From positions 64,001-128,000 of the forward strand of contig CAWJKZ010000009.1 in NCBI GenBank assembly GCA_963843575.1: DNA of 64,000 bases, read 5' to 3'. Position 1 is the first letter of the stretch; every line of letters begins with the position of its first letter. The notes beneath the pieces were generated by a model. The model worked only from the letters and a program-made list of their open reading frames with translations, did no database searches and was not told the DNA's origin. Shown piece by piece: positions 43,517-57,922 of this stretch. The DNA is from an uncultured Acidobacteriota bacterium. GTDB lineage: Bacteria > Acidobacteriota > UBA6911. The translations under genes and the position numbers were made by a program.

Positions 43517-44088
43517 ATGCCATCCCCGCACGAAGTCACTCATCTGCTCCAGGCCTGGTGCGGCGGCGACCAGGCGGCCCTGGATAAGCTCGTCCCTCTG
43601 GTTTATGACGAACTGCACAGGCTGGCCCACATCTACATGGTGCGCGAGCGGCCGGGCCACACGCTGCAGACCAGTGCCCTGGTCAATGAGGCCTATCTCC
43701 GGCTCATCGATGCCAACCAGGTTCAGTGGCAGGACCGCACCCACTTTTTTGCCATCTCGGCCAATGTGATGCGCCGCATCCTGGTGCAATTTGCGCGCTC
43801 GCGCGGTTCCCGGAAGCGGGGCGGCGGCGCCGGGCAAGTGGACCTCGACGAAGCGCTCATTCCGTCGCCGGAACGCGATGCCGACCTGATGGCGCTGGAC
43901 GACGCGCTGACTGCGCTGGCCGCGATCGATCCGCGGGAAGGGAGGGTGGTGGAGCTGCGTTTTTTCGGCGGAATGAGCGTGGACGAGACCGCGGAGGTCC
44001 TGCACTCTCGGGCATGATGGTGAAGCGGGATTGGAATCATGCGAAGGCGTGGTTGCTGCAGGAGTTGAAACGAGGGGCGCGCGGATGA
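43517..44088 (+). pseudogene. ECF sigma factor (kinase-associated TIGR02999-like), frameshifted near 44005
   Basis: EVTHLLQAW..ALDKLVPLVYDELHRLA, HTLQTSALVNEAYLRL and VVELRFFGG; VKRDWNHAKAWL in another frame; TGA overlaps the kinase ATG. Confidence 0.88.
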
Positions 44089-46333
44089 GTATCGATCGGT
44101 GGCAGCGGGTCAAGGAGATCTACAACTCGGCCCTGGATCTCGAGCCGGGAGGGCGCGAGGCCTACCTGCGAGAGGCCTGCGGGGGAGACCAGTCCCTGCG
44201 GCAAGAGGTCGAGGCTCTGCTGGCCAACCTGCCGGAGGCCGAGGGATTCATGAAGGATCCCGCAATGGAAGTGGCGGCCCGAGGTCTGGCGAAAGACCAG
44301 GAAAACGCGCTGGCGGGAGAGCTGGCGGGCCGCACCGTTTCGCATTACCGCATCATCGAAAAGATCGGCCAGGGGGGCATGGGAGAGGTATTCCTTGCCG
44401 AGGACACCTCCCTGCATCGCAAAGTCGCGCTGAAATTCCTGCCGCCGGAAATGCAGCGGGATCCCGTCGCCCGAAAGCGCTTCCTGCGGGAAGCCCATTC
44501 GGCCGCTGCGCTGGACAATCCCTACATCTGCAGCATCCATGAAGCCGGCGCGTTCGAAGGCAAGGACTTCATTGTAATGGAGTACGTGGACGGTCAAACA
44601 CTGATGGACAAGCTCCGTCGCCATCTGCCGCTGAAGCAGGTCCTGCAGATCGCCACAGAGGTTGCGGAGGCGCTGGAGGCGGCGCACGGGAAGGGGATCA
44701 TCCACCGGGACCTGAAGCCCGCGAACATCATGCTGGCGCAGACAGGTCATGCCAAGGTGATGGACTTCGGGCTGGCCAAGCAGTTGATTCCGCCCGGAGG
44801 AATCGGCAGCCAGGAAGAGTCGGTGACGGCGCTGACCCGAAGCGGGATGACGCTGGGGACTTTGGCCTACATGTCGCCGGAACAGTTACGGGGGGCGACC
44901 GTCGACGCCCGGTCGGACATTTTCTCGTTTGGCGTCGTTCTCTACGAGATGCTGGCCGGTGTTCATCCCTTCAAGAAGGAGACGGGGATGGACACAGCTG
45001 GCGCGATCCTCAACTCGGCGCCTCAGCCTGTTGGAGAGCTTCGCGCGGATACTCCCGCTCTGATCCAGCACATTGTGAGGAAGATGCTCGCCAAAGATCC
45101 GCAGGATCGGTATTCATCGATGCACGATGTAAAGACCGACCTGAAGGAGTTGATGGAGGAGTCGAATCGGCCGGCACCGGGGTTACGTCGAGGGCTTAAA
45201 CCTATGTGCTGGATTGCCGCAAGCGCATTGGTAGTCGTCGGCGTGGGAATCTGGACGTTTTTCATGTTCGCTCCTCGCGAGATGGCATTACCGCCACCGA
45301 GAATCGTGCCTGTAACAACGTCCGGTGGCGCAAATGCTGACCCGTCACTTTCACCGGATGGAAACTGGATCGCGTTTGTCTGGATGGGTGAAAAGCAGGA
45401 CAACTTGGACATCTACGTCAAAGAGTTGAATGGTCCCGGCTTCAATCGATTGACGACCGACCCGGCAGATGACTGGTGCCCCGCATGGTCTCCCGATGGC
45501 CTCCAGATCGCTTTCCTGCGATCCTCGGGGGATCGATGGATCCTGTACCTCATCAGCCCGTTGGGCGGTGGAGAAAGGAAATTGGCTGAGGTAGGCGGCG
45601 GAAAACTCAGCTGGTCGCCAGACGGAAAGAACATCGCGTTTAACGACAGGAAATCGCCGAAAGATCCGCCGAGTATCTGGTTGCTGTCGGTGGAAACGCT
45701 GGAAAAGAAGCAGATGACCGCCCCAGATGTAAGTTACTACGGCGACCATGGGCCGGCCTTTTCACCCAACGGTCGCTACCTTGCATTCGTCAGGTATATT
45801 GAGAGTTCAAGATCCGCGCTTTATGTCATGGATCTTCCCCGTGGAGAGCCAAGGCTTGTGACGGACTATAACTCTCCTGCGGGGCCATGCTGGACTGCCG
45901 ACAGCCGCGAGATTGTCTTCGCCACTGATCCTGTAACAGGAGAAACGCATTATGAAAGCCCGCCGCGTGATATCGGCATTTATACATTGAAGGCCGGCTG
46001 TCTGGCGACAGCCCAGGGGCTCTGCCCCTGGCCCCGGGATTTTGTGAGGCATGACTCTGGTGTCCGATAGATAAATGAGGCCTCTGACGATTGTTAGTCG
46101 CCAGAGGCCCGATGCACCATCGGCGCACCGTCGGCCTGACTATCCCTTGCCGGGTTGCGTCCCCGCAGAGCCCGACGCCGTTTCGTCAGGCGGGCCCAGT
46201 CTAGCACGTAGGAGATTGCAGTTTTGAAGATTTGGTCGCGAGCATAGAAGACATCATGAAAAGAAGACGCTCCAACAGCGGTAAGATTGGGATCGGTTCA
46301 AGACACCACTCAAAACCGCCAAAGGAGCGTCTG

Positions 46334-47386
46334 ATGAAAAAGTATATCGGCATGGATGTCCACAAAGCAACAACGGTGATAGCGGTTATCGGTGAGTCGG
46401 GCAAAAGGATTACTGACGGCGTGGTGGAAACATCCCCAGAGGCAATCCTGGATTTCATCAACGGGCAGCGCGGGGCGCTGCATGTCACTCTGGAGGAGTG
46501 CGCACAGGCGGCCTGGCTTTATGACATGCTCCGACCTTACGTCGCAGACGTGTTGGTCTGCGATCCACGCAAGATCGCCAAGGCAAGTAACAAGGCAGAC
46601 AAGTCCGATGCTGCGCGGCTGGCGGAGTTGCTTCGCACGAATGCGCTGACGCGAGTCTACCATGGCGAACAGAGCACTCTGGGATTGAAGGAACTCGCGC
46701 AGGGGTACGCCTGTTTAATCGAGGACAGGACCAGGGTCAAAAATCGCCTGAAGGCTTTGTTCCGGGCCCGCGGGATACCTTGTGAAGGCGCCGGAGTCTA
46801 CGGTCTTGAGGAACGGGAGGAGTGGCTGGCGAAACTGGACTCGGCAGCCGTGCGTGTCCGAGCTGGACGACTCTGCAATCAACTTGACTGCGCCGACTGG
46901 CTGTCGATAGAAGCGGAGCAGGAACTGACAGCTGAGGCACGGAAACATCCCGCTACAAAGATACTTCGCAGCATACCTGGAATCGGGTATGTGCGCGCCG
47001 CTGTAATCATCGGCGTCGCTGGTACTCCGCACCGATTTCGAACCAAGAGACAGTTCTGGAGTTACTGCGGGCTGGGTGTACGAACCGAGGCCAGTTCGGA
47101 ATACAAGATGCTCGCCGGGAAGGTCGTTCGATCCAACAGGCGGCCGCTTGTCCGCGGCTTGAATCAAAACTACAGCCGGGCGCTGAAGTCTGTGTTCAAG
47201 AGCGCGGCCAGGACTGTTGCCTCAGGACCGTGGCGGTCATATTTCGAGGCCATGATCGAAAACGGCACCCCTGAATCACTGGCATACCTGACTTTGGCGA
47301 GGAAGATTGCGTCGGTCACGCTGGCACTCTGGAAAAGAGGAGAACGCTATAGCCAAAAGAAACTGAAGATACCGCACGCGGCATGA
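46334..47386 (+). CDS. IS110 DEDD recombinase/transposase
   Basis: YIGMDVHK, TLEE and NKADKSDA (DEDD); LRSIPGIG, RF.TKRQFWSYCGL and LARK; AAGGAG RBS. Confidence 0.95.
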   Translation: MKKYIGMDVHKATTVIAVIGESGKRITDGVVETSPEAILDFINGQRGALHVTLEECAQAAWLYDMLRPYVADVLVCDPRKIAKASNKADKSDAARLAELLRTNALTRVYHGEQSTLGLKELAQGYACLIEDRTRVKNRLKALFRARGIPCEGAGVYGLEEREEWLAKLDSAAVRVRAGRLCNQLDCADWLSIEAEQELTAEARKHPATKILRSIPGIGYVRAAVIIGVAGTPHRFRTKRQFWSYCGLGVRTEASSEYKMLAGKVVRSNRRPLVRGLNQNYSRALKSVFKSAARTVASGPWRSYFEAMIENGTPESLAYLTLARKIASVTLALWKRGERYSQKKLKIPHAA

Positions 47387-47700
47387 AGCGTCTCGAGGAC
47401 CGACTGAGCAGGTCGGCAATGGTATTCAAATTGAAACCCGAACGAGACGCGAGGTCGAGGGTGAGTCTCAAGAACGCCGTTAGGCCCGGAGATGGAGTCT
47501 CCTTGAAACCATAGGCCCCCTCGCATGACCAAATAAAGCAATAGGCTTCCAAGTCTCAGATAGGACCATGGTCGGCAACACGGCCGCTGTGCTTTGAAAG
47601 TCTCGAACGGATTTGAATTCCGCTGCCCCTTGAACAGCCGGCTTCGTATGCATAGTGCATGCGTTATTCCGGAAATGATCGCAGGATCAGCAGGGCAGCA
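47387..47700 (+). ncRNA. Putative bridge/seek RNA in the 3' non-coding end (copy 1)
   Basis: Target-loop strands CGAGACG (47443-47449) and AACGCCGT (47473-47480); donor-loop strands ATAGGAC (47560-47566) and GTGC (47589-47592); each pair flanks an inner hairpin. RNA ends are unknown. Confidence 0.75.
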
Positions 47701-47771
47701 CTGAACGAGCGTTGGCTGGATGTCGTGGACCGAAAAAACGCGCCCTGTTCCTGGGGCGGAAGAGTTTGTCC

Positions 47772-47794
47772 TTGACATCCGCTTTCATAGGACG
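47772..47794 (+). promoter_or_regulatory. Outward -35 (TTGACA) completing a promoter on circularisation
   Basis: The circle junction reads TTGACA-17 bp-CATTAT, with the -10 contributed by the left end (45948-45953). Confidence 0.7.
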
Positions 47795-49087
47795 GCGTTG
47801 TGGCGGATCTTCGTGGACGGCGGAGAGCCTCGCAGAGTCCCGGCACGTGGCGAGCGGGTTCATCAGCCCACGGTCAGCCGGAATCGTCTGGCGTACCGAA
47901 GCCTAACCTATAACTCGGATATTTGGAGAATGGAGCTGACCGGGCAGGGGGCGATGAAACCGCCATCGAAGCCTTTATTCTCCTGGTCGTCAGGTGAGAT
48001 AGACCAGCGTATTTCGCCGGACGGAAGCAGGATTGCCTTCGCGTCCGACAGTTCAGGAAGCTTGGAGATCTGGGTTTGCCATGCCGACGGCACAAAGCCG
48101 ATGAAGCGCACCGAAATGAAAGCCGGAAGCACCGGCAGTCCAAACTGGTCTCCCGACGGCAAGAACATCGCTTTCGATTCCACCAAATCGGGGAATGGCG
48201 ATATTTATGTGGTCAGCGCGGAAGGAGGGCCGGTACGCCGCATCACAACTGATCCAACGGAAGAGGTGGTCCCCCGCTGGTCACGGGACGGTCGCTGGAT
48301 CTACTTCGGCTCGAACAGGAGCGGGACCTGGCAGATCTGGAAGATGCCGTCCGATGGAGGCAAGGCGATTCAGATCACCAAGGACGGAGGCATGGTGGCC
48401 CGCGAATCAGCCGATGGGCAGCTCGTGTACTACCATGGTTACTATAATCTTCAGAAAAAAGGTGTGTGGCGAGTGCCGGTATCGGACGGCCAGGAGACGC
48501 TCGTACTGGACAAAGAGATTGACCCCCATAATTGGGATTTGACAGACCGGGGCATCTACTTCATTGATGGCAGTGGCACCGTCAGCCTATGGCGACCATA
48601 TGCTTCTACGATTTTGCGACCCGGTCCATAAGGACTCTGACTCCTGTCCATGGTGCTCCAGGATTTGTGGGTAGATGAGGGTTTGAGCGTCTCGCCCGAC
48701 GGTAAGTGGCTTCTCTACTCCGGTGGGATCTTCACTTCCGACATCATGATGATCGACAACTTCCGCTGACAGAAGTTATCCACCCATCGCGATCCGTCAA
48801 ATCAGCATGCAGCAGAAGGACGAAACACACTCGATCGGTCTTTGCGCCCAAGGCCTCCGATCGGCTGCCCATCTCGGGTCCTCAGGTTTCTTGGATCGTT
48901 GCTGTCCCGAAGTCCTGTTCACGGAGATCATGCCCGCCAGCCTGAGGCCCCCACCGGGGTCCCGGTCATCTCCGCGAACGCCGTCTCACGTTCTTAACGA
49001 CCGGCGACGACGCGTCAGACTATTTTCCGTCTATGGCTTTGCCACAGGCCGAAAGCAAGCTTTCCTCAATCGCTTTTCCGCTCGATG

Positions 49088-49132
49088 CTAGGCACTTGCC
49101 TAGTTGTCACCGTCGGTCGCCTTCGTTATGGT
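49088..49132 (+). promoter_or_regulatory. CTAGG-N6-CCTAG palindrome abutting a TTGTCA-17-TATGGT promoter-like sequence
   Basis: Read directly; the same palindrome recurs at 50588-50603. Confidence 0.45.
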
Positions 49133-49279
49133 GCCATTAGAACCGATACGGGCCGCCGGTGATGTTTGTCTTGCTCGCGCGTCACATCACCGAAAGCCTG
49201 CTCTCCATTGCTGAGAAGGGACGTTTTCTGGCGGCTCCAGTTTCGGCGATGAGTTCAGACAGCGCACCTAAACCATCTG

Positions 49280-50533
49280 GTGGAGGGCGCGGTGGCGCAT
49301 CGATTCAACGGGAGAGGGATGTCTCGCAGCCATCGGCACCAAAGGGAATGGTTTGCCACTACGCTCCGGAGCATCGGCGACGGCGTTATCGCCACGGACC
49401 GTGAGGGGCGGGTGACGTTCATGAACACGGTTGCGGAATCGCTGACCGGGTGGAGCGAGGCCGAGGGGGCCGGTCGGCCTCTAGCCGAGGTTTTTTCGAT
49501 CGTCCGCGCGGCCACGCGCGAGCCGGTTAGTGGCCTTGCAGAGCGTGTCCTGAGGGAAGGCGCCATCGTCGTGTTCCCCGAGCCCTCGCTCCTTTTGGCT
49601 CGCGACGGAACCGAGCGGCCGGTCGACGACTCGGCAGCCCCGATACGCGGCGAGAACGGGGAGACCATCGGCGTCGTGCTGGTCTTCCGCGACGTATCCG
49701 TAAGAGCGATCGCAGAGGCCGAGCGTGCCCAGTTCCTTGCCCGGGAGAGCGCCGCACTGCGCGAGGCCGAAACTGCCCGACTCGCCAAGGACACGTATCT
49801 CGCCACGATGGCGCACGACCTGCGCACTCCGCTCAACGCGATCCTCGGCTGGTCGAGCCTGCTACGCACCCGGAATCTCGATGGCCCGAAAATGGCCCGC
49901 GCTCTCGAGGTCATCGAACACAATGCGCAGGCTCAGGTGCAACTCATCAATGATCTTCTCGACACCTCCCGCATGGCACTCGGCAAGCTGCGGCTCGAGG
50001 TGCACTCGGTCGATCTGTCGCGCATCATCGAGGATGCAGCAGATGCGCTGCGCCCGGCTGCGGACGATAAGGGCTTGAGCCTGGATCTCGATCTCCAACC
50101 CGCGGACCGTCCTGTTGCCGGCAATACCAGCCGGCTCCGGCAGGTGTTCTGGAACCTGCTTTCGAATGCGATCCGTTTTACCCCGGGAGGCGGCCGGGTA
50201 CAGGTAGCCCTCAGATACACCAGTTCCGAAGCGCTCATCTCAATCGCGGACACGGGTGAGGGAATCCGCGACGATTTCAAACCGCACATTTTCAAACGGT
50301 TCAGCCAGGACGAACGCACGACCACGCCGGAACACCACGGTCTGGGCCTCGGGCTGGCAATTGTAAGCGAAATCGTGAAGCTGCACGGCGGCACAGTCTG
50401 GGCCGAGAGTCGCGGTGCAGGACAGGGTGCGACCTTCAAACTCACCCTGCCGCTCGCTGCGGAGATTCATCGCGGAGAATCCGGAGTCGGAGATGTCCCC
50501 GCCCGCAACGAGGTCGGGTGTGCGGGTCCATGA
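49280..50533 (+). CDS. PAS-domain sensor histidine kinase (start uncertain, possibly truncated)
   Basis: TLRSIGDGVIATD..FMN.VAE.LTGW (PAS); HDLRTPLNAI, QVFWNLLSNA, IADTGEGI and GLGLGLAIV. Confidence 0.85.
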   Translation: MEGAVAHRFNGRGMSRSHRHQREWFATTLRSIGDGVIATDREGRVTFMNTVAESLTGWSEAEGAGRPLAEVFSIVRAATREPVSGLAERVLREGAIVVFPEPSLLLARDGTERPVDDSAAPIRGENGETIGVVLVFRDVSVRAIAEAERAQFLARESAALREAETARLAKDTYLATMAHDLRTPLNAILGWSSLLRTRNLDGPKMARALEVIEHNAQAQVQLINDLLDTSRMALGKLRLEVHSVDLSRIIEDAADALRPAADDKGLSLDLDLQPADRPVAGNTSRLRQVFWNLLSNAIRFTPGGGRVQVALRYTSSEALISIADTGEGIRDDFKPHIFKRFSQDERTTTPEHHGLGLGLAIVSEIVKLHGGTVWAESRGAGQGATFKLTLPLAAEIHRGESGVGDVPARNEVGCAGP

Positions 50534-50583
50534 TCGCTTCAAACGGCCGCATCAGTCTGACCGGCCTCGGGTTCTTCCCCTCC

Positions 50584-50607
50584 AAAGCTAGGCTGTTTCC
50601 TAGCTTT
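50584..50607. promoter_or_regulatory. Palindrome AAAGCTAGG-N6-CCTAGCTTT upstream of the Crp/Fnr gene
   Basis: Perfect 9-bp arms; core shared with 49088-49103. Confidence 0.5.
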
Positions 50608-50934
50608 ACAAACGACCGCTTCCTGCTACGTTAGCATTGGTTGATCCTGCGCCGGCCGCATTGCACAACGAATTGGCGAACCTGCAAAGGCACTCGCGGG
50701 ACACCGACAACCGCGTCAACGGGCGCCCCCCAATCGTTTACACGGAAGCAGGTTGTTACAGCGTCAAGGAGTGCGTCTCAACTTGACGCGGCAACGAGAG
50801 GAGGAATTATGCTGGCAAGCCAGCTAGGTATGATTCCCCTGAAAAACAACGCGAAGCAGCATCCTGCAGCCGCCAGCATGGCAAGGATCAAGCGCGCGGA
50901 AACCAGCAATCTCGATGTTGAGGAACAGCCAGAG

Positions 50935-51600
50935 ATGGAGGCGGTTTTGGATGTGAAGACCGAGCGTGTTGACTGGGAAAGCATTCTCACAGGGATCTTC
51001 CGTGGGAAGACCGTGATCGAATGTGGCATGGACCGTAACGTCTTCCGGCAGGGCCAACCTGCCGATTCATTGTTCTATATCAGGCGGGGCAAGGTGAAGC
51101 TCACGGTTATATCCCAGCAGGGCAAGGAAGCTATTGTTGCCATCGTGGGATCCGGGGAGTTCTTCGGCGAGGGATGCCTCGCAGGTCAACCATTGCGTAC
51201 GGCAACGGCTGTGGCGATGACGGATTGCACTCTCGATAAGATCGAGAGGTCGCTGATGGTGCGTATGCTTCACGAGAAGCACGACATTTCGGAATTGTTC
51301 GTCAAGCATCTGCTTTCACGCAACATCCGCTACGAAGCGGATCTCGTCGATCAGCTGTTCAATTCGAGCGAGAAGCGTCTGGCCCGGATTCTGCTGCTGC
51401 TGGCTCATTTCGGCAAGGAGAGCAGAGCCGAGACCGTACTACCCATGGTAAATCAGGATACGTTGGCGCAGATGGTCGGCACGACCCGTTCGCGGGTCAG
51501 TCATTTCATGAACAAGTTCAGGAAGCTTGGCTTCATCGACTACGATGGCGCCGGATTGACGGTCCATAGCGGCCTTCTCAACGTAGTCCTGCACGACTAG
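50935..51600 (+). CDS. Crp/Fnr-family transcriptional regulator
   Basis: FRQGQPADSLFYI..GKVKL, EFFGEGCLAGQPLR, SEKRLARILL and QDTLAQMVGTTRSRVS; start uncertain. Confidence 0.9.
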   Translation: MEAVLDVKTERVDWESILTGIFRGKTVIECGMDRNVFRQGQPADSLFYIRRGKVKLTVISQQGKEAIVAIVGSGEFFGEGCLAGQPLRTATAVAMTDCTLDKIERSLMVRMLHEKHDISELFVKHLLSRNIRYEADLVDQLFNSSEKRLARILLLLAHFGKESRAETVLPMVNQDTLAQMVGTTRSRVSHFMNKFRKLGFIDYDGAGLTVHSGLLNVVLHD

Positions 51601-51672
51601 CGGCCTTTGGTGTGAGTTGTATTCGGTCAGATGATCAATGCCGGGAAGCGTGGGATATTCAGGGATTGGCGT

Positions 51673-51810
51673 GATGTGCCACCAAGTCGTGCTCGCCGAT
51701 GATTACCCTTCATTTCGGCAATGCGTCAGGGAGATCCTAGCCGAAACAGAGGATCTTGAAGTAGTCGCGGAAGCCGACGATGGTCAAGCTCTGCTCGACC
51801 TGCTGTGTGA
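51673..51810 (+). pseudogene. NarL-type receiver domain, N-terminal relic
   Basis: VVLADDYPSFRQ.VREIL..DLEVVAEADDG. Confidence 0.7.
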
Positions 51811-51814
51811 TGGT

Positions 51815-51947
51815 TCCACCGCTGAACCCGTTCTACGACATGCCGTATAACCCGGACGGCGAGAACTGGGTTGACCCGGGCCTGGGCGGCTTCCTCAAGT
51901 CTGCCGGCTACCTGGAGCTAGATTGGGGGCCCGCGTGGGGCAAGCAC
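51815..51947 (+). pseudogene. Internal relic resembling a cytochrome c peroxidase
   Basis: P.NPFYDMP.NPDG..WVDPGLGGFLK..GKH; resemblance recalled, not searched. Confidence 0.45.
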
Positions 51948-52174
51948 AGGCGATTGCGGAAGCACCGTCCGCGTCAAGATATGTCGCTATAGCTGTTTGC
52001 GGCTCGGCCGAATATCTTTCCTCACGGAGTGTTCAAAAGTGAACAGACAGCGTTCTTGACCGTTGCTTATTATATTGGGGAGGAAGCAAAAGGACTGTCG
52101 TCTGGGCCAATATTGCAGCTTCAGCCCTAATGTACTAACGGTTCCTAGAATGCCAAAGAGAGAGGAGTCGAGGT

Positions 52175-52543
52175 ATGGATAGAGAGGCCAAGTACGGTGT
52201 CGTTTCGGCATCCAAGATCATCGGCGAGGCGGTGATCAATCGCCAGAATGAAAATCTGGGCAAAATCCATGAGCTGGTAATCGACGCCGAGGATGGGCGT
52301 ATGGCCTACGCGGTTCTCTCCTTCGGCGGCTTCATGGGTATGGGGAACAAGCTGTTCGCCATGCCTTGGAAGGCATTCGAGTTCGCCAAGACTGAGAACA
52401 AGCTCGTTCTGAACGTGGACAAGGAGAAGCTGAAGAACGCTCCTGGGTTTGACGAGGCCGCCAAGTGGCCAGATTTCGCGGACAGGACTTGGGGAAGCAG
52501 CATTTACAAATATTACGGCTACGAGCCCTACTGGAAGCCGTAG
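52175..52543 (+). CDS. PRC-barrel domain protein
   Basis: SASKIIGEAVIN..ENLGKI.ELVID..YAVLSFGGFMG..KLFAMPW..LKNAPGF. Confidence 0.92.
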   Translation: MDREAKYGVVSASKIIGEAVINRQNENLGKIHELVIDAEDGRMAYAVLSFGGFMGMGNKLFAMPWKAFEFAKTENKLVLNVDKEKLKNAPGFDEAAKWPDFADRTWGSSIYKYYGYEPYWKP

Positions 52544-52939
52544 GATAAACGATTCGGGCGCTCGCTGATTTCGATGGCCTGGATCGGCGAGCGCGCTGCC
52601 GCGCGTGAGAGCCGTCGCTCAACGGGCGCGACCGGATCTCCATAGCAAAGCCCGACGGCACAGCACGGGAGAGCCTGCTGGCTGTGATGAACCGCCGGGA
52701 CGAGATCACGGCCAGGCTGGCAGATGCCGACCCGGCAGTCAAGGAGAAGCTCGGGGCACTGTACACGGAGTTCTTTCGACTGGCCTAGCCAGCCGGCTGC
52801 GCACCGCCGCAGGCCGGAAGAAAAAGACAGATTACGATCCACATCAGGCTGCTCACAATGGCTCCCGCCGCGGCTTGGCTCCCCCCTTGAAGAGCAAAAA
52901 CAGGCAATTCCCTTCTCAAGTGAAGGAGAGGTATAAGCG

Positions 52940-53803
52940 ATGAATAGATTTCGAATGACCATCCTATCTTGTCTGGTCGGCATTATCGCCTCAGCGCCAG
53001 CGCTGTGCCAGTCGACCACCCGGTCTGATCTCCAGGTGGAGGAGAGCACGACCTCCGGAACAATCGTTTCCTCGACCCGGAACACGCTGGTGGTGAAGGC
53101 CGATAGCGGCCGGTACGTTCTCTTCGTCTTTGATCGCGACACGACGCGGCCGCGGGTGCTGCCTGCGGGAACTCGAGTCAATGTTACATCCACTCCTGGT
53201 GACGAGCCGGGAGTGAGGGTGGCGAGCACTATTACCACCCCGGAGGCGACTCCGGCCGCCACCGCCCCCTCCACGGCACCGGCCACTCCCCGGCGCGGGA
53301 CCAGAATCCCAGCGGACGACCAATCTATTCCACCTGAGGTGCGGCGGCTCGAACGCCAGATCGAGCGCCAAACCAGGAAGTACAACGTGGGAGTTCGCGC
53401 AGGCGCCACACTCGACCCGGAACTTGTCTTTGTTGGAGTCCACACCAGGTTGGGCCCGATTTTCCACCCGGATGTTTTCTTCCGGCCAAACGCCGAAATC
53501 GGCTTCGGCGAGGTCACGACGCAGATTGGTCTGAACCTCGAGGCGGTATACCGACTGCCCCTGAATGTGCGGTCGGGGCGCTGGTCCGCCTACGTCGGCG
53601 CGGGGCCGGGCTTCTCTTTCAGCCACAGGGGATTCTCCGAAGCCGAGAGCGGGGGAAGAGACATCGATTTCGGCGACTTCGACTGGCACACGGGCCTCAA
53701 CGTGCTCACAGGCATAGAATATCGTGGCGGGATGTTTATCGAATTCAAGACCACCGCCTATGCTACACCCCATTTCCGGATGATGATCGGCTACAGCTTC
53801 TGA
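52940..53803 (+). CDS. Exported protein with C-terminal outer-membrane beta-barrel
   Basis: Signal peptide, OB-like N-domain, Pro/Thr linker, amphipathic strands and terminal GYSF. Confidence 0.8.
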   Translation: MNRFRMTILSCLVGIIASAPALCQSTTRSDLQVEESTTSGTIVSSTRNTLVVKADSGRYVLFVFDRDTTRPRVLPAGTRVNVTSTPGDEPGVRVASTITTPEATPAATAPSTAPATPRRGTRIPADDQSIPPEVRRLERQIERQTRKYNVGVRAGATLDPELVFVGVHTRLGPIFHPDVFFRPNAEIGFGEVTTQIGLNLEAVYRLPLNVRSGRWSAYVGAGPGFSFSHRGFSEAESGGRDIDFGDFDWHTGLNVLTGIEYRGGMFIEFKTTAYATPHFRMMIGYSF

Positions 53804-54265
53804 AAGCGACCGGCCTCGGGGGCGAGGTCCGTTCTGCCGCCGTGTGGGCTTCCCATTTCCGGGTTTTCGCTCTTCTCCCGTTCGGCGCAGAAGCCGCCTC
53901 CGAGTGGCCCCGGGTCTTTTGGTTCGGCCCCTTCGCCACGCCATCTCAATGTCGCCTGACGGGCGGCCCCTTCTCTGTTCTCAAGCCGACTACCAGATCG
54001 GTGACTTGATGATTGTGAATGATGTGCGATAGGCGGGCCGGGAGCTGGAGGATGCCGGGTGTCCTTTCCATTTGCCATTTCTGGCGCATCCCAACAGATA
54101 CATCCCAATGAAATGTGATTTTCCAGCAATAGCAAATTGCGCATACACCTTGCCTGCGGAAAGTGGATCAAGGTTACACGGCAAGTGGCTGGTCCTCACC
54201 CAATTTCCAAGTCCCGATGTGGGAAATGATTAGTATTGGCAGACGAGAAGTTCGGAGTGGGGGAT

Positions 54266-54778
54266 TTACCGCGCGGCAGGATACTTGACGACGACGGGAG
54301 AACGGAGCTGCCCGGGCCGCGGCCAGGTGTCGTAGCGCGCCCCGTTCCAATACGCCGTGTCCGTGGTCGTGAGCTCCCGGACGAGGTCGGTCGTGCGGAG
54401 GGCGCCGTACGCGGCGACTAGCAAAAGGATCGCCGCGGCCGCCCCGAGCCGCAGTCCGGGCGACGCGGGCCGCCGGGCGGCCAGCAGGCTCGTGACTGTG
54501 AGGAAGCCGATGGCCGCCGAGGCCAGCATAAAGAACCGGCCGGAATAGAATTCCCAATTGTGGCCCTGGAACGATCCTATGAAGCTATACGCCAGGATCA
54601 ACAGCCAGGGGTAGAGCAGCAGCGCGTAGGCGCAGGACAGGCGCTGCCGCAGATGCGGGTTGAGCAACGCCAGCGCGCTGAAGACCACCACCAGGATGTG
54701 GCCCGGCAGCGCGGGGTGGCGGGCGAATCCCCATGCATCGGCCGCGCCGAGGCGCGTGATGTAGTCGGCGGCGTTCAC
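54266..54778 (-). pseudogene. Fragment of a polytopic membrane protein (GC-rich)
   Basis: Several TM segments; begins at the IS1634 remnant junction without a clear start. Confidence 0.5.
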
Positions 54779-54786
54779 GAATCTGT

Positions 54787-55876
54787 TACGAGGTGATGGA
54801 TGGAAACACCAGCGATCGAACCACGCTGCGGCAGTATCTCAATAAGATTGAAAACCAGTACGGCAAAGCACGCCGCGTGTGGATCATGGACCGTGGCATT
54901 CCCACGGAGGAAGTGCTCTCCGAGATGCGGCAATCGGATACCCCGATCCACTATCTGGTGGGAACACCGAAAGGACGGCTGAACAAACTCGAAGCACAGC
55001 TGCTGCCACTGCCTTGGGAAAAGGTGCGCGACAGCCTGAGCGTCAAACTGCTCAAGCAAGAGCAGGAATTGTATGTGCTGGCGTGCAGTACGAGCCGGCA
55101 GGCGAAAGAGTGGGCCATGCGCCGCCGGCGACTGAAGCAATACTGGAATCGGCTTCGTGAACTTAGCGGCCAGAAGTTAGATCGTGACCGACTGTTGATG
55201 AAAATCGGAGCGGCCAAAAAGGAAGCCGGCCATGCCGCTCGGTTGGTGGAACTATCCCTGCCTTTTCCACACCAAGCGGTCACACCGGAAACGTTTCGCT
55301 TCAGCTTGTGCAAAGACAAGCTCCGTAAGGTTCGCAAACAGGAAGGACAATACCTGCTGCGCTCGAATTTGACTGGCGAAGATCCGGCCACGTTATGGAG
55401 GTACTACATACAACTGGTCGAGGTTGAACAAGCGTTCAAGACCCTCAAAATGGATCTTTCCCTACGGCCCATCCACCACCAGAAAGACGAGAGGATTGAA
55501 GCGCATATTTTCGTGGCCTTCCTGTCGTACTGTCTTCAGGTAACTCTGCAGCAGCGATTGAAAGCCCTTGCTCCTGGTCTCACTGTGCGGTCGGTTCTGG
55601 AAAAGTTTGCCTCCATACAATTGGTAGATGTCCACCTGCCCACGACGGACGGCCGAGAGCTGCGGTTACCCAGATATACCGAGCCGGATAAAGAGCACCT
55701 TCTGTTGCTTTCCAGACTGGATCTGACGCTGCCTCCGCAGCCGCGGCCAGAACTCCTGGACAAAAAACCTACGATGACCAAGTTGAAGATGAACGTGTAG
55801 TGAAGACTTTCGGGGATGCTTTCTAATGGAATCAATAACTTACGGGCAGCCTACCCCCTCAGTTGTCAAAGTCGGG
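54787..55876 (+). mobile_element. IS1634-family element, 5' truncated (transposase remnant ends 55800)
   Basis: YEVMDGNT.D, WIMDRGIPT, YLVGTPK, YIQLVEVEQAFKTLK.DL.LRPIHH and IEAHIFVAFLSY; probable right end ...GTCAAAGTCGGG. Confidence 0.85.
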
Positions 55877-56075
55877 CTAGTAATGTAAATACCAACAAGG
55901 GCCTTCGAAGTCCCGTTCGAGGAGATGACTGCCACTGGCTGTCGCTCACCTTGCCCAGCGAGGGGTGATTGACGCGAACGCCGTCCTATGAAAGCGGATG
56001 TCAAGGACAAACTCTTCCGCCCCAGGAACAGGGCGCGTTTTTTCGGTCCACGACATCCAGCCAACGCTCATTCAG

Positions 56076-56388
56076 TGCTGCCCTGCTGATCCTGCGACAC
56101 TTCCGGAATAACGCATGCACTATGCATACGAAGCCGGCTGTTCAAGGGGCAGCGGAATTCAAATCCGTTCGAGACTTTCAAAGCACAGCGGCCGTGTTGC
56201 CGACCATGGTCCTATCTGAGACTTGGAAGCCTATTGCTTTATTTGGTCATGCGAGGGGGCCTATGGTTTCAAGGAGACTCCATCTCCGGGCCTAACGGCG
56301 TTCTTGAGACTCACCCTCGACCTCGCGTCTCGTTCGGGTTTCAATTTGAATACCATTGCCGACCTGCTCAGTCGGTCCTCGAGACGCT
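56076..56388 (-). ncRNA. Putative bridge/seek RNA (copy 2)
   Basis: Same guide segments at 56326-56332, 56295-56302 and 56209-56215. Confidence 0.72.
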
Positions 56389-57441
56389 TCATGCCGCGTG
56401 CGGTATCTTCAGTTTCTTTTGGCTATAGCGTTCTCCTCTTTTCCAGAGTGCCAGCGTGACCGACGCAATCTTCCTCGCCAAAGTCAGGTATGCCAGTGAT
56501 TCAGGGGTGCCGTTTTCGATCATGGCCTCGAAATATGACCGCCACGGTCCTGAGGCAACAGTCCTGGCCGCGCTCTTGAACACAGACTTCAGCGCCCGGC
56601 TGTAGTTTTGATTCAAGCCGCGGACAAGCGGCCGCCTGTTGGATCGAACGACCTTCCCGGCGAGCATCTTGTATTCCGAACTGGCCTCGGTTCGTACACC
56701 CAGCCCGCAGTAACTCCAGAACTGTCTCTTGGTTCGAAATCGGTGCGGAGTACCAGCGACGCCGATGATTACAGCGGCGCGCACATACCCGATTCCAGGT
56801 ATGCTGCGAAGTATCTTTGTAGCGGGATGTTTCCGTGCCTCAGCTGTCAGTTCCTGCTCCGCTTCTATCGACAGCCAGTCGGCGCAGTCAAGTTGATTGC
56901 AGAGTCGTCCAGCTCGGACACGCACGGCTGCCGAGTCCAGTTTCGCCAGCCACTCCTCCCGTTCCTCAAGACCGTAGACTCCGGCGCCTTCACAAGGTAT
57001 CCCGCGGGCCCGGAACAAAGCCTTCAGGCGATTTTTGACCCTGGTCCTGTCCTCGATTAAACAGGCGTACCCCTGCGCGAGTTCCTTCAATCCCAGAGTG
57101 CTCTGTTCGCCATGGTAGACTCGCGTCAGCGCATTCGTGCGAAGCAACTCCGCCAGCCGCGCAGCATCGGACTTGTCTGCCTTGTTACTTGCCTTGGCGA
57201 TCTTGCGTGGATCGCAGACCAACACGTCTGCGACGTAAGGTCGGAGCATGTCATAAAGCCAGGCCGCCTGTGCGCACTCCTCCAGAGTGACATGCAGCGC
57301 CCCGCGCTGCCCGTTGATGAAATCCAGGATTGCCTCTGGGGATGTTTCCACCACGCCGTCAGTAATCCTTTTGCCCGACTCACCGATAACCGCTATCACC
57401 GTTGTTGCTTTGTGGACATCCATGCCGATATACTTTTTCAT
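56389..57441 (-). CDS. IS110 DEDD recombinase/transposase
   Basis: Same protein as 46334-47386. Confidence 0.95.
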   Translation of the reverse strand: MKKYIGMDVHKATTVIAVIGESGKRITDGVVETSPEAILDFINGQRGALHVTLEECAQAAWLYDMLRPYVADVLVCDPRKIAKASNKADKSDAARLAELLRTNALTRVYHGEQSTLGLKELAQGYACLIEDRTRVKNRLKALFRARGIPCEGAGVYGLEEREEWLAKLDSAAVRVRAGRLCNQLDCADWLSIEAEQELTAEARKHPATKILRSIPGIGYVRAAVIIGVAGTPHRFRTKRQFWSYCGLGVRTEASSEYKMLAGKVVRSNRRPLVRGLNQNYSRALKSVFKSAARTVASGPWRSYFEAMIENGTPESLAYLTLARKIASVTLALWKRGERYSQKKLKIPHAA

Positions 57442-57922
57442 CAGACGCTCCTTTGGCGGTTTTGAGTGGTGTCTTGAACCGATCCCAATCTTACCGCTGT
57501 TGGAGCGTCTTCTTTTCATGATGTCTTCTATGCTCGCGACCAAATCTTCAAAACTGCAATCTCCTACGTGCTAGACTGGGCCCGCCTGACGAAACGGCGT
57601 CGGGCTCTGCGGGGACGCAACCCGGCAAGGGATAGTCAGGCCGACGGTGCGCCGATGGTGCATCGGGCCTCTGGCGACTAACAATCGTCAGAGGCCTCAT
57701 TTATCTATCGGACACCAGAGTCATGCCTCACAAAATCCCGGGGCCAGGGGCAGAGCCCCTGGGCTGTCGCCAGACAGCCGGCCTTCAATGTATAAATGCC
57801 GATATCACGCGGCGGGCTTTCATAATGCGTTTCGGAGTCTCTTGTCATGAATTAAGCTGTAAGTAGTTGTTCCCGCTGAGGTAAAATGACATTATCAAGA
57901 GTGGTTCGAGGCGGAGATACAC

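Follow-up and report, generated by a model that had tools for sequence, protein, structure and literature searches.

We analysed a 64,000-nt window of the genome of an uncultured bacterium (assembly GCA_963843575.1, contig CAWJKZ010000009.1; coordinates are window positions unless a contig is named), which contains two inverted copies of a 1847-bp element of the IS110 family. With a probability of roughly 0.88, both repeats are copies of an RNA-guided insertion sequence (IS) of the IS1111 subgroup with an AC core. Short segments within its conserved 3' non-coding region change in step with the DNA at the element junctions, in one genome as well as across distant lineages. A preliminary description of the same DNA had presented the repeats as a recently active, reprogrammable IS110 recombinase. 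The assignment holds for the family, but the type has to be changed to IS1111; the word "reprogrammable" is supported by natural covariation only.

Junctions and host target

Copy A occupies positions 45947-47793 on the + strand and copy B positions 55983-57828 on the - strand. The inverted arms 45942-47677 and 56098-57833 are 100% identical over 1736 nt, and a second pair (47679-47799 and 55977-56097) is 99% identical over 121 nt. The copies differ by a 1-nt indel (the extra base at 47678) and one single-nucleotide polymorphism. Both have the junctions …GAAAC|GCATTATG…CATAGG|ACGGCGTT…, at the site GAAAC|GGCGTT. In copy A, the left core AC (45945-45946) forms the last bases of the left target GAAAC, the 1845-bp body (GCATTATG...CATAGG) spans 45947-47791, and the right junction (47792-47799) consists of the core AC followed by the right target GGCGTT; the body and one core copy make up the 1847 bp of inserted DNA. 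The 1844-bp body of copy B (55985-57828) lies between core copies at 57829-57830 and 55983-55984. On the - strand it carries the transposase gene (56389-57441) and segments that we assign as right-target guide (56295-56303), left-target guide (56266-56270) and left-donor guide (56209-56215). The repeats are two insertions of one element at separate sites, with GAAACG before CATTATG and ACGGCGTT after CATAGG in both, as described earlier.

Copy A splits a Ser/Thr kinase-PD40 gene into two parts with Pkinase and PD40 domains (Pfam). Excision of 1847 bp in silico restores the frame GAA ACG GCG TTG. The rebuilt site is colinear, and gap-free at the junction, with three paralogs from the same genome (81–85%) and one ortholog from another genus (72%). 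One of the paralogs (C22:49680) contains the 11-mer GAGAAACGGCGTTGTGG intact and empty. The restored frame, the colinear homologs and the uninterrupted paralog site identify GGCGTT as host DNA, in line with the preliminary claim for GCGTT. For copy B, the orthologous site in a genome of the same genus reads GAAACGGCGA across the junction; this support is only partial because the similarity is lost further downstream.

There is no target-site duplication apart from the core: only AC is present at both junctions, and the empty site reads GAAACGGCGTT. The G next to it belongs to the element, since a diverged relative in the same genome (F, see below) has AC-G at its left junction and AC-C at its right junction. 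The AC core proposed earlier is also indicated by the overlap of the two target guides. The core of IS621 is CT, compared with AC here.

The interrupted gene (44031-46070 and 47720-48631) is one of four paralogous genes encoding a Ser/Thr kinase with a PD40 β-propeller; the others lie at C14:477587, C24:415148 and C22:49186 and are 79–90% identical in DNA near the site. The consequence for the host is the knock-out of one of the four. Only this gene was hit, though the C22 paralog has the same 11-bp target.

Guide segments vary with the insertion site

The genome of origin (6.68 Mb in 27 contigs, 88% complete) contains seven matches to the element, comprising three copies of about 100% identity, two of 85%, and one relative of 71–76% that is split in two pieces. 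The third near-identical copy, C, is flanked by GGAAC on the left and ACGGCGTT on the right. Relatives D and E (85%) have the left flanks AATAC and GATAC, respectively, with ACGGCGTT on the right in both, and relative F (71–76%) lies between CTTAC and ACCGCTTAC.

Seven closely related elements were aligned (A–F and locus L008). The RNA scaffold is near-invariant among them, and only two short segments vary, in step with the flanks. The first (47472-47480) reads (G)AACGCCGT in A, B, C and L008 as well as in D and E, and GTAAGCGGT in F, and is the exact reverse complement of the right flank and core. The second (47505-47509) reads GAAAC in A, B, C and L008, GATAC in D and E, and CTTAC in F, corresponding to the left flank and core. 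We assign the first as the right-target guide (+ strand), complementary to the top strand of ACGGCGTT(C). The second is the putative left-target guide (+ strand); as it has the same sense as the left flank and core, it would pair with the bottom strand. The two guides overlap on AC in the target. A third segment, ATAGGAC (47560-47566, +), has the same sense as the right end CATAGG with the core AC and is the candidate left-donor guide. The preliminary description had correctly placed the right-target guide at 47473-47480, had noted that it is longer than the left one, and had recognised TAGGAC (47561-47566) of the donor segment.

The remainder of its RNA model followed IS621, with CGAGACG (47443-47449) as the left-target guide 5' of AACGCCGT, a loop closed by TCAGA/TTTGA and GTGC (47589-47592) as the right-donor guide. 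While GAGACG resembles GAAACG with one G·T pair, CGAGACG is identical in all seven elements despite the left flanks GAAAC, GGAAC, GATAC, AATAC and CTTAC, and GAAAC at 47505-47509 covaries instead. CGAGACG also lies in an 8-bp helix, P0 (47388-47450, +), formed directly after the stop codon by GCGTCTCG (47388-47395) and CGAGACGC (47443-47450) and equalled in just 2 of 200 shuffles. With one wobble, GUGC could pair with the left-end bases GCAT, but its UGC is part of a helix, P3, in which three pairs have changes on both sides. In locus L041 the left end has GCAA and the RNA CUGC, so the segment does not covary. The closing helix TCAGA/TTTGA is unsupported in relatives. A left guide on the 5' side is found in IS621, according to the available text of PMC11208160, while the segments that covary with the flanks place the right guide 5' and the left guide 3' here. 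We consider the IS621-like arrangement very unlikely. Imposing this order led to a stem strand and part of a helix being taken for guides, GAAAC being missed and both loops being closed wrongly. Of the loop strands proposed to covary with their targets across homologs, AACGCCGT and TAGGAC do, while CGAGACG and GTGC do not.

Contigs from four metagenome runs add three left flanks of the IS1111-type element, each with GAAAC at its end, and a right flank, ACGGCGTT-C. Whether further copies keep the target had been suggested as a check, and these three left ends do. Two contigs belong to relatives with the same scaffold and other guides. In run X2, a contig over 47444-47611 has the changes 47474 A>T and 47507 A>T, the latter giving the left guide GATAC. 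In a contig of run X4 that ends at 47507, …CCCTAAC replaces …TTGAAAC.

The right flank of copy B (55950-55982) and that of copy E (L005), which are different element types, lie in similar sequence, …ACGGCGTTCGCGTCAATCAC/T…. At two unoccupied target sites, C25:12306 and C27:10658, GCGTTCGC also follows. These similarities point to a repeated host sequence with the target in it.

Architecture of the predicted guide RNA

The predicted RNA consists of two modules on the + strand. The target-binding module (47453-47530, about 80 nt) is an internal loop closed by helices P1 (CGAGGG/CCCTCG, 47456-47461/47518-47523) and P1b (GTCT/AGGC, 47465-47468/47513-47516), with an inner hairpin at 47488-47502. 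P1b has undergone an A-U to C-G double change in the clade of the element. The donor-binding module (47527-47595) comprises the long-range helix P3' (GACC/GGTC, 47527-47530/47570-47573; both sides changed in 16 and 7 cells), P3 (AAAGCA/TGCTTT, 47535-47540/47590-47595; alignment helix 101-107/185-190) and P4 (AGGC/GTCT, 47543-47546/47553-47556).

These helices were derived with RNAalifold and explicit pair counts from an alignment (A1) of 33 of 50 distinct anchored RNA modules. The other 17 were near-duplicate, mis-anchored or over-long (L008, L025, L027, L031, L034, L044, L046, L048, L057, L058, L060, L062, L065, L071, L078, L080 and L082). Over the five helices, 92.4% of the cells are paired and 13 of 26 pairs have changes on both sides, a level reached by none of 500 shuffles. 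When the partners are slid, pairing falls to 32–49%. An alternative helix at alignment positions 2-5/93-96 is weaker than P3', with 82.6% of cells paired and no both-side pairs compared with 92.9% and two such pairs. Helices with other sequences are present at the P0 position of relatives; as only 14 of 48 rows stand out (at most 20 of 200 shuffles reaching the stem), the universality of P0 is not established.

The first module measures about 80 nt, and the two combined measure about 150 nt, which fits the short (82–96 nt) and long (148–172 nt) IS1111 seekRNAs given in the available sections of PMC11187229. A terminator-like hairpin with a U-rich tail at 47569-47595, identified as a pattern match only, could mark the 3' end of the RNA.

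Covariation across lineages

A scan of species-representative genomes yielded 126 relatives among 154 candidate stretches, of which 80 were kept. They are found in Acidobacteriota, in Sorangium and other Myxococcota, in Gemmatimonadota and in other groups, with 37–89% protein identity and a common 3' scaffold. Element ends were defined from multi-copy comparisons or from the subterminal repeat together with TTGACA. Only twelve lineages, those with definable ends, entered a permutation test. Cognate matches summed to 77 for the left-target, 84 for the right-target and 84 for the left-donor guide, while the non-cognate means per pair were 2.86, 3.33 and 3.98, respectively. For each of the three guides, 0 of 20,000 permutations of these related lineages reached the observed sum. 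The left-donor guide matches at 7 of 7 nt in all 12 lineages, with six distinct sequences.

Even in distant lineages (38–50% protein identity), the same scaffold positions match the cognate DNA. In G1, present in 13 copies, the left guide ATGGGGCAC corresponds to the flank …ATGGGGCAC and the left-donor guide ATAGAAC to the right end …TATAGAAC. In a Sorangium locus (L047), the left guide CGGATAG faces …GGATAG, the right guide GCTTGTCCT faces AGGACAAGC and the left-donor guide ATAGAAG faces …ATAGAAG. The left-donor guides ATGGAAG (L071), ACAGAAG (G3) and ATGCGAG (G6) equal the right ends of their own elements. Sister genomes show the same correspondence: G043 has the left guide GGTTAAC and the flank CGGTTAAC; G059 has the right guide GAAGTCCCGT for the flank ACGGGACTTC and the left guide CUCGAAU for CTCGAAC; and G019 has the right guide TTCTGGGCGT for the flank ACGTTCAGAA, with two G·T pairs. 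The left end of the G019 element (L105) was not found within the DNA retrieved for the locus. More than ten other lineages follow the same guide-to-flank rule as the window element. The guide positions can be read with confidence because three diverged versions are present in one genome, in which RNA and sites changed together.

An alternative is that the constant right-hand ACGGCGTT is part of the element, that the protein alone picks the site and that the RNA matches are coincidental. The five own-genome copies of two element types, in which ACGGCGTT is constant and the left flanks vary, could be read in this way. However, the kinase frame is lost if GCGTT is removed together with the element, and keeping GCGTT restores colinearity with the four homologs, in addition to the uninterrupted 11-mer in the paralog. 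Relatives with other RNA segments adjoin other right flanks (F, G059, G019, L009 and L047), and the permutations argue against coincidence. We regard this alternative as extremely unlikely.

Transposase and element ends

The transposase gene (46334-47386, +) encodes a 350-aa protein, identical in copies A and B, with DEDD_Tnp_IS110 and Transposase_20 domains (Pfam PF01548, N-terminal and DEDD/RuvC-like, E 1.3e-16; PF02371, C-terminal, E 1.1e-11). An in-frame ATG is located upstream at 46256. The NCBIfam model NF033542, "IS110 family RNA-guided transposase", matches with 146.4 bits (cut-off 140). The solved recombinases ISCro4 (E 8e-7) and IS621 (E 2e-5) are distantly related, and the named plasmid-borne relatives found, such as ISAtu7 and IS1328, have at most 30% transposase identity. 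In an alignment of 49 distinct relatives, at least 95% have D8, E54/E55, D89 and D92, and position 254 is Ser in 42 and Thr in 7. The serine motif, of the G..P....S(t)G type, reads GLGVRTEASS, with SS in place of SG. By analogy, D8, E54/E55, D89, D92 and S254 are the probable catalytic residues.

The ends carry 9-bp subterminal inverted repeats, TATGAAAGC at 45951-45959 (+) and GCTTTCATA at 47781-47789, positioned 4 nt and 2 nt inside the core. Circularisation would join TTGACA (47772-47777, +) through a 17-nt spacer to CATTAT (45948-45953) as -35 and -10 hexamers of a putative junction promoter; the coordinates given in the preliminary description are correct. The distant relative G1 has the same arrangement, with CATAAT as the -10 hexamer. 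For ISEc11, a junction promoter (Pjunc) assembled by joining two IS ends was reportedly described by Prosseda and colleagues in 2006 (Prosseda et al. 2006), while the present promoter is inferred from the TTGACA-17-CATTAT sequence.

The right non-coding end (47387-47791, 405 nt) lies downstream of the transposase gene and carries the conserved scaffold. According to the available text of PMC11187229, including its section 9, IS1111 members have subterminal inverted repeats of 7–17 bp, a long non-coding region with the guide RNA on the 3' side of the transposase gene, and a seekRNA whose top-strand match precedes the bottom-strand match in the 5'-to-3' direction, the two overlapping in the target. 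We found each of these features in the present element: the 9-bp subterminal repeats, the downstream scaffold, and the order of the guides with their overlap on AC. On its end and RNA features (for the subgroup, see PMC11187229 and PMC11208160), the element is assigned within the IS110 family to the IS1111 subgroup.

The left non-coding end is also long (45947-46333, 387 nt) compared with about 90–100 nt in most relatives. It contains blocks that are near-invariant in A, D, L008 and even the 71% relative F, and that are more conserved than the coding region (also in L004 and L008). RNAalifold predicts extensive pairing in this region, based on three sequences with little covariation. A 9-bp helix of AGACGCTCC (46265-46273) with GGAGCGTCT (46324-46332) would mask the ribosome-binding site that precedes the ATG at 46334. 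A left-end segment, ACGCCGTTTC (46175-46184), was considered as a guide because it is reverse-complementary to 10 of the 11 target bases. It does not covary with the target: F, with another target, has C(C/G)GTTTC, and the 85% type, with the same right target, has ACTCCGTTTC or ACTCGGTTTC. The match is most likely due to chance within a conserved hairpin.

Terminator-like hairpins are located inside both ends, at 47741-47758 (-), 46016-46035 (+) and 46078-46110 (-), and may insulate the element from outside transcription. The first points from the right flank into the element and has a stem that covaries between A and F (CGCCC/GGGCG versus CTCCC/GGGAG). In four relatives (L014, L018, L026 and L057), a second, partial right end comes after the first (…TTTATAGAAC ATCCCCCTTTATAGAAC…). 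These look like insertions beside a remnant of an earlier right end, or like duplications of the end.

Donor recognition

We searched the whole element in ten lineages for stretches of 6 nt or more that are complementary to the left end or have its sense, and found none at a consistent scaffold position that could serve as a right-donor guide. Two candidates, ATGCGT and CATAGTGC (copy A, about 47652-47663), are located where conservation is lowest; F lacks them, and D and E have altered versions. The 3' strand of P3, considered as a guide for AAAGC of the left repeat, does not covary in G1 or Sorangium. Lineages with differing left ends share a conserved 5' side of the donor module. A literature search turned up no structure of an IS1111-type complex.

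The base that follows the left-donor guide (A1 column 150, window position 47567) equals the first right-target base in 10 of 17 lineages by script and 11 of 17 by eye; the script misplaced at least three rows (A and L102 in the left-target guide, G3 in the left-donor guide). The first base at the left end of the element is matched in just 1 of 17. The one-base match fails in the window element (C versus G), and as the lineages are related, such a "handshake" is only a lead.

Tentatively, and with the odds somewhat against it, we propose that the RNA of this Acidobacteriota/Myxococcota IS1111-type clade is programmable at three places only, the right-target, left-target and left-donor segments. 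The strand at the place expected for a right-donor guide is conserved (GAAnGAAGC-like) and would be locked in a pseudoknotted helix, and the left end would be read by the protein via the subterminal repeat, or after strand exchange, with the one-base handshake added. If true, the logic of donor recognition would differ from that of IS621.

Proposed mechanism and mobility

We infer RNA production, binding of the RNA to the protein, circle formation and continued activity. In the proposed mechanism, the element would excise as a circle, whose joined ends …TTGACA-17 nt-CATTAT… would act as a promoter. Transcription from it would cross the long left end and the DEDD recombinase gene and continue into the 3' non-coding region. 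This last region would give a folded guide RNA, a seekRNA or bridge RNA about 150 nt long (47451 to about 47600). In the internal loop of its first module, the two target pairings would overlap on the core AC, the point of strand exchange. The recombinase, presumably a tetramer as in IS621, would exchange strands at AC, and the circle would be inserted into GAA-AC-GGCGTT without target duplication.

Several observations speak against this account. The guide RNA is a prediction from DNA sequence. The fold of 47384-47625 is thermodynamically ordinary (z = -0.51), so the single-sequence fold is uninformative alone, and an Rfam scan of the element gave chance-level matches only (best E 3.5–8.8, far below the gathering scores). 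P3' and P3 cross and can coexist only as a pseudoknot; otherwise they represent two alternative states. The left guide has only 5 nt here compared with 7–9 nt in relatives, and two of the five own-genome sites (GGAAC and AATAC) mismatch it. The scan for a right-donor guide was negative. The lineages of the permutation test are related, their ends were read by the analyst and the guide windows were set by self-chosen anchors. The right junction of G049 (L103) fits its RNA poorly; this locus is outside the test, which predates sight of it. Finally, five perfect GAAACGGCGTT sites in the own genome are unoccupied (C10:478012, C14:234084, C22:49680, C25:12306 and C27:10658), as are seven GATACGGCGTT sites, the target of the 85% type. 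These counts are near chance (2.7 expected by composition for each), and the 11 bp are thus neither sufficient nor saturating.

It is conceivable that these are real IS1111-type copies that are no longer mobile, being old or derived from segmental duplication, with the RNA as a relic. Consistent with this are the five unoccupied targets, and no contig of the four metagenome runs spans the circle junction or the empty-site joint, although the parts that were not covered are uninformative. In addition, the 3' non-coding region of F is broken by a 1324-bp IS5-family element inside the guide RNA, directly after the left-target guide. However, A, B and C differ at no more than about three positions in 1847 bp, and their flanks are unrelated beyond the 11-bp target, which makes them separate insertions and not duplicated segments. 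Copies A and B have identical open reading frames with all conserved catalytic residues, and the metagenome contigs contain the same element at other sites. Loss of mobility is therefore unlikely, and the earlier description of a recently mobile element agrees with the three near-identical copies at unrelated sites.

The IS5-family insertion in F (C10 about 639697-641046; L007 1781-3130) is bordered by a CTAG duplication and has the terminal inverted repeats CAGGATGCTGAAA. Its transposase is encoded on the - strand of L007 (NF033581, 296 bits). It presumably disables F.

Comparison with known systems

RNA-guided insertion sequences of this kind have been known since 2024, and the element is a member of the known IS1111 kind. 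RNA-guided recombinases are under development as genome-writing tools, and experiments have dealt mainly with IS621-like elements and with a small number of IS1111 members from enterobacteria. The locus adds a distant, compact IS1111-type clade with a 350-aa enzyme and an RNA of about 150 nt.

The closest parallels are the IS1111 seekRNA elements ISEc11, ISPa11, ISKpn4 and ISPst6 (Siddiquee et al. 2024, PMC11187229). In the available sections of that paper, they resemble the present element in a DEDD transposase of about 340–350 aa, subterminal repeats, a downstream guide RNA with the top-strand segment 5', overlapping matches and module sizes. The present transposase differs in being at most 30% identical to the named plasmid-borne relatives found, and the left end is long (387 nt) and conserved; the same sections list two long non-coding regions for 26 of more than 350 IS. 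The host here is an uncultured soil or sediment bacterium, with assemblies of Acidobacteriota as its closest relatives, and the RNA is predicted from the DNA.

IS621 (Durrant et al. 2024, PMC11208160; 8wt6 and others), as far as the available text describes it, is similar in its recombinase family (E 2e-5), two-module RNA, circle-junction promoter and core dinucleotide within the guide pairings. Its left guides also pair with the bottom strand and its right guide with the top strand. In contrast to IS621, the present RNA is located in the right end instead of the left, and the order of the guides in the target loop is reversed. The donor module is multi-helical or pseudoknotted instead of forming a simple internal loop, and the search for a right-donor guide in it was negative.

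Natural retargeting has been described for ISEc11 and ISXne4 (PMC11187229, section 10, available in part), where the RNA stems are kept and the target-matching segments are swapped together with the insertion sites. The same is seen here, while the present series is found within one genome: the left guide alone changes from GAAAC to GATAC in the 85% type, and both guides are replaced in F. The series continues in the sister genomes G043, G059 and G019. Compared with the known systems, the locus thus contributes a natural retargeting series and a covariation-supported scaffold for the IS1111-type RNA of a distant clade.

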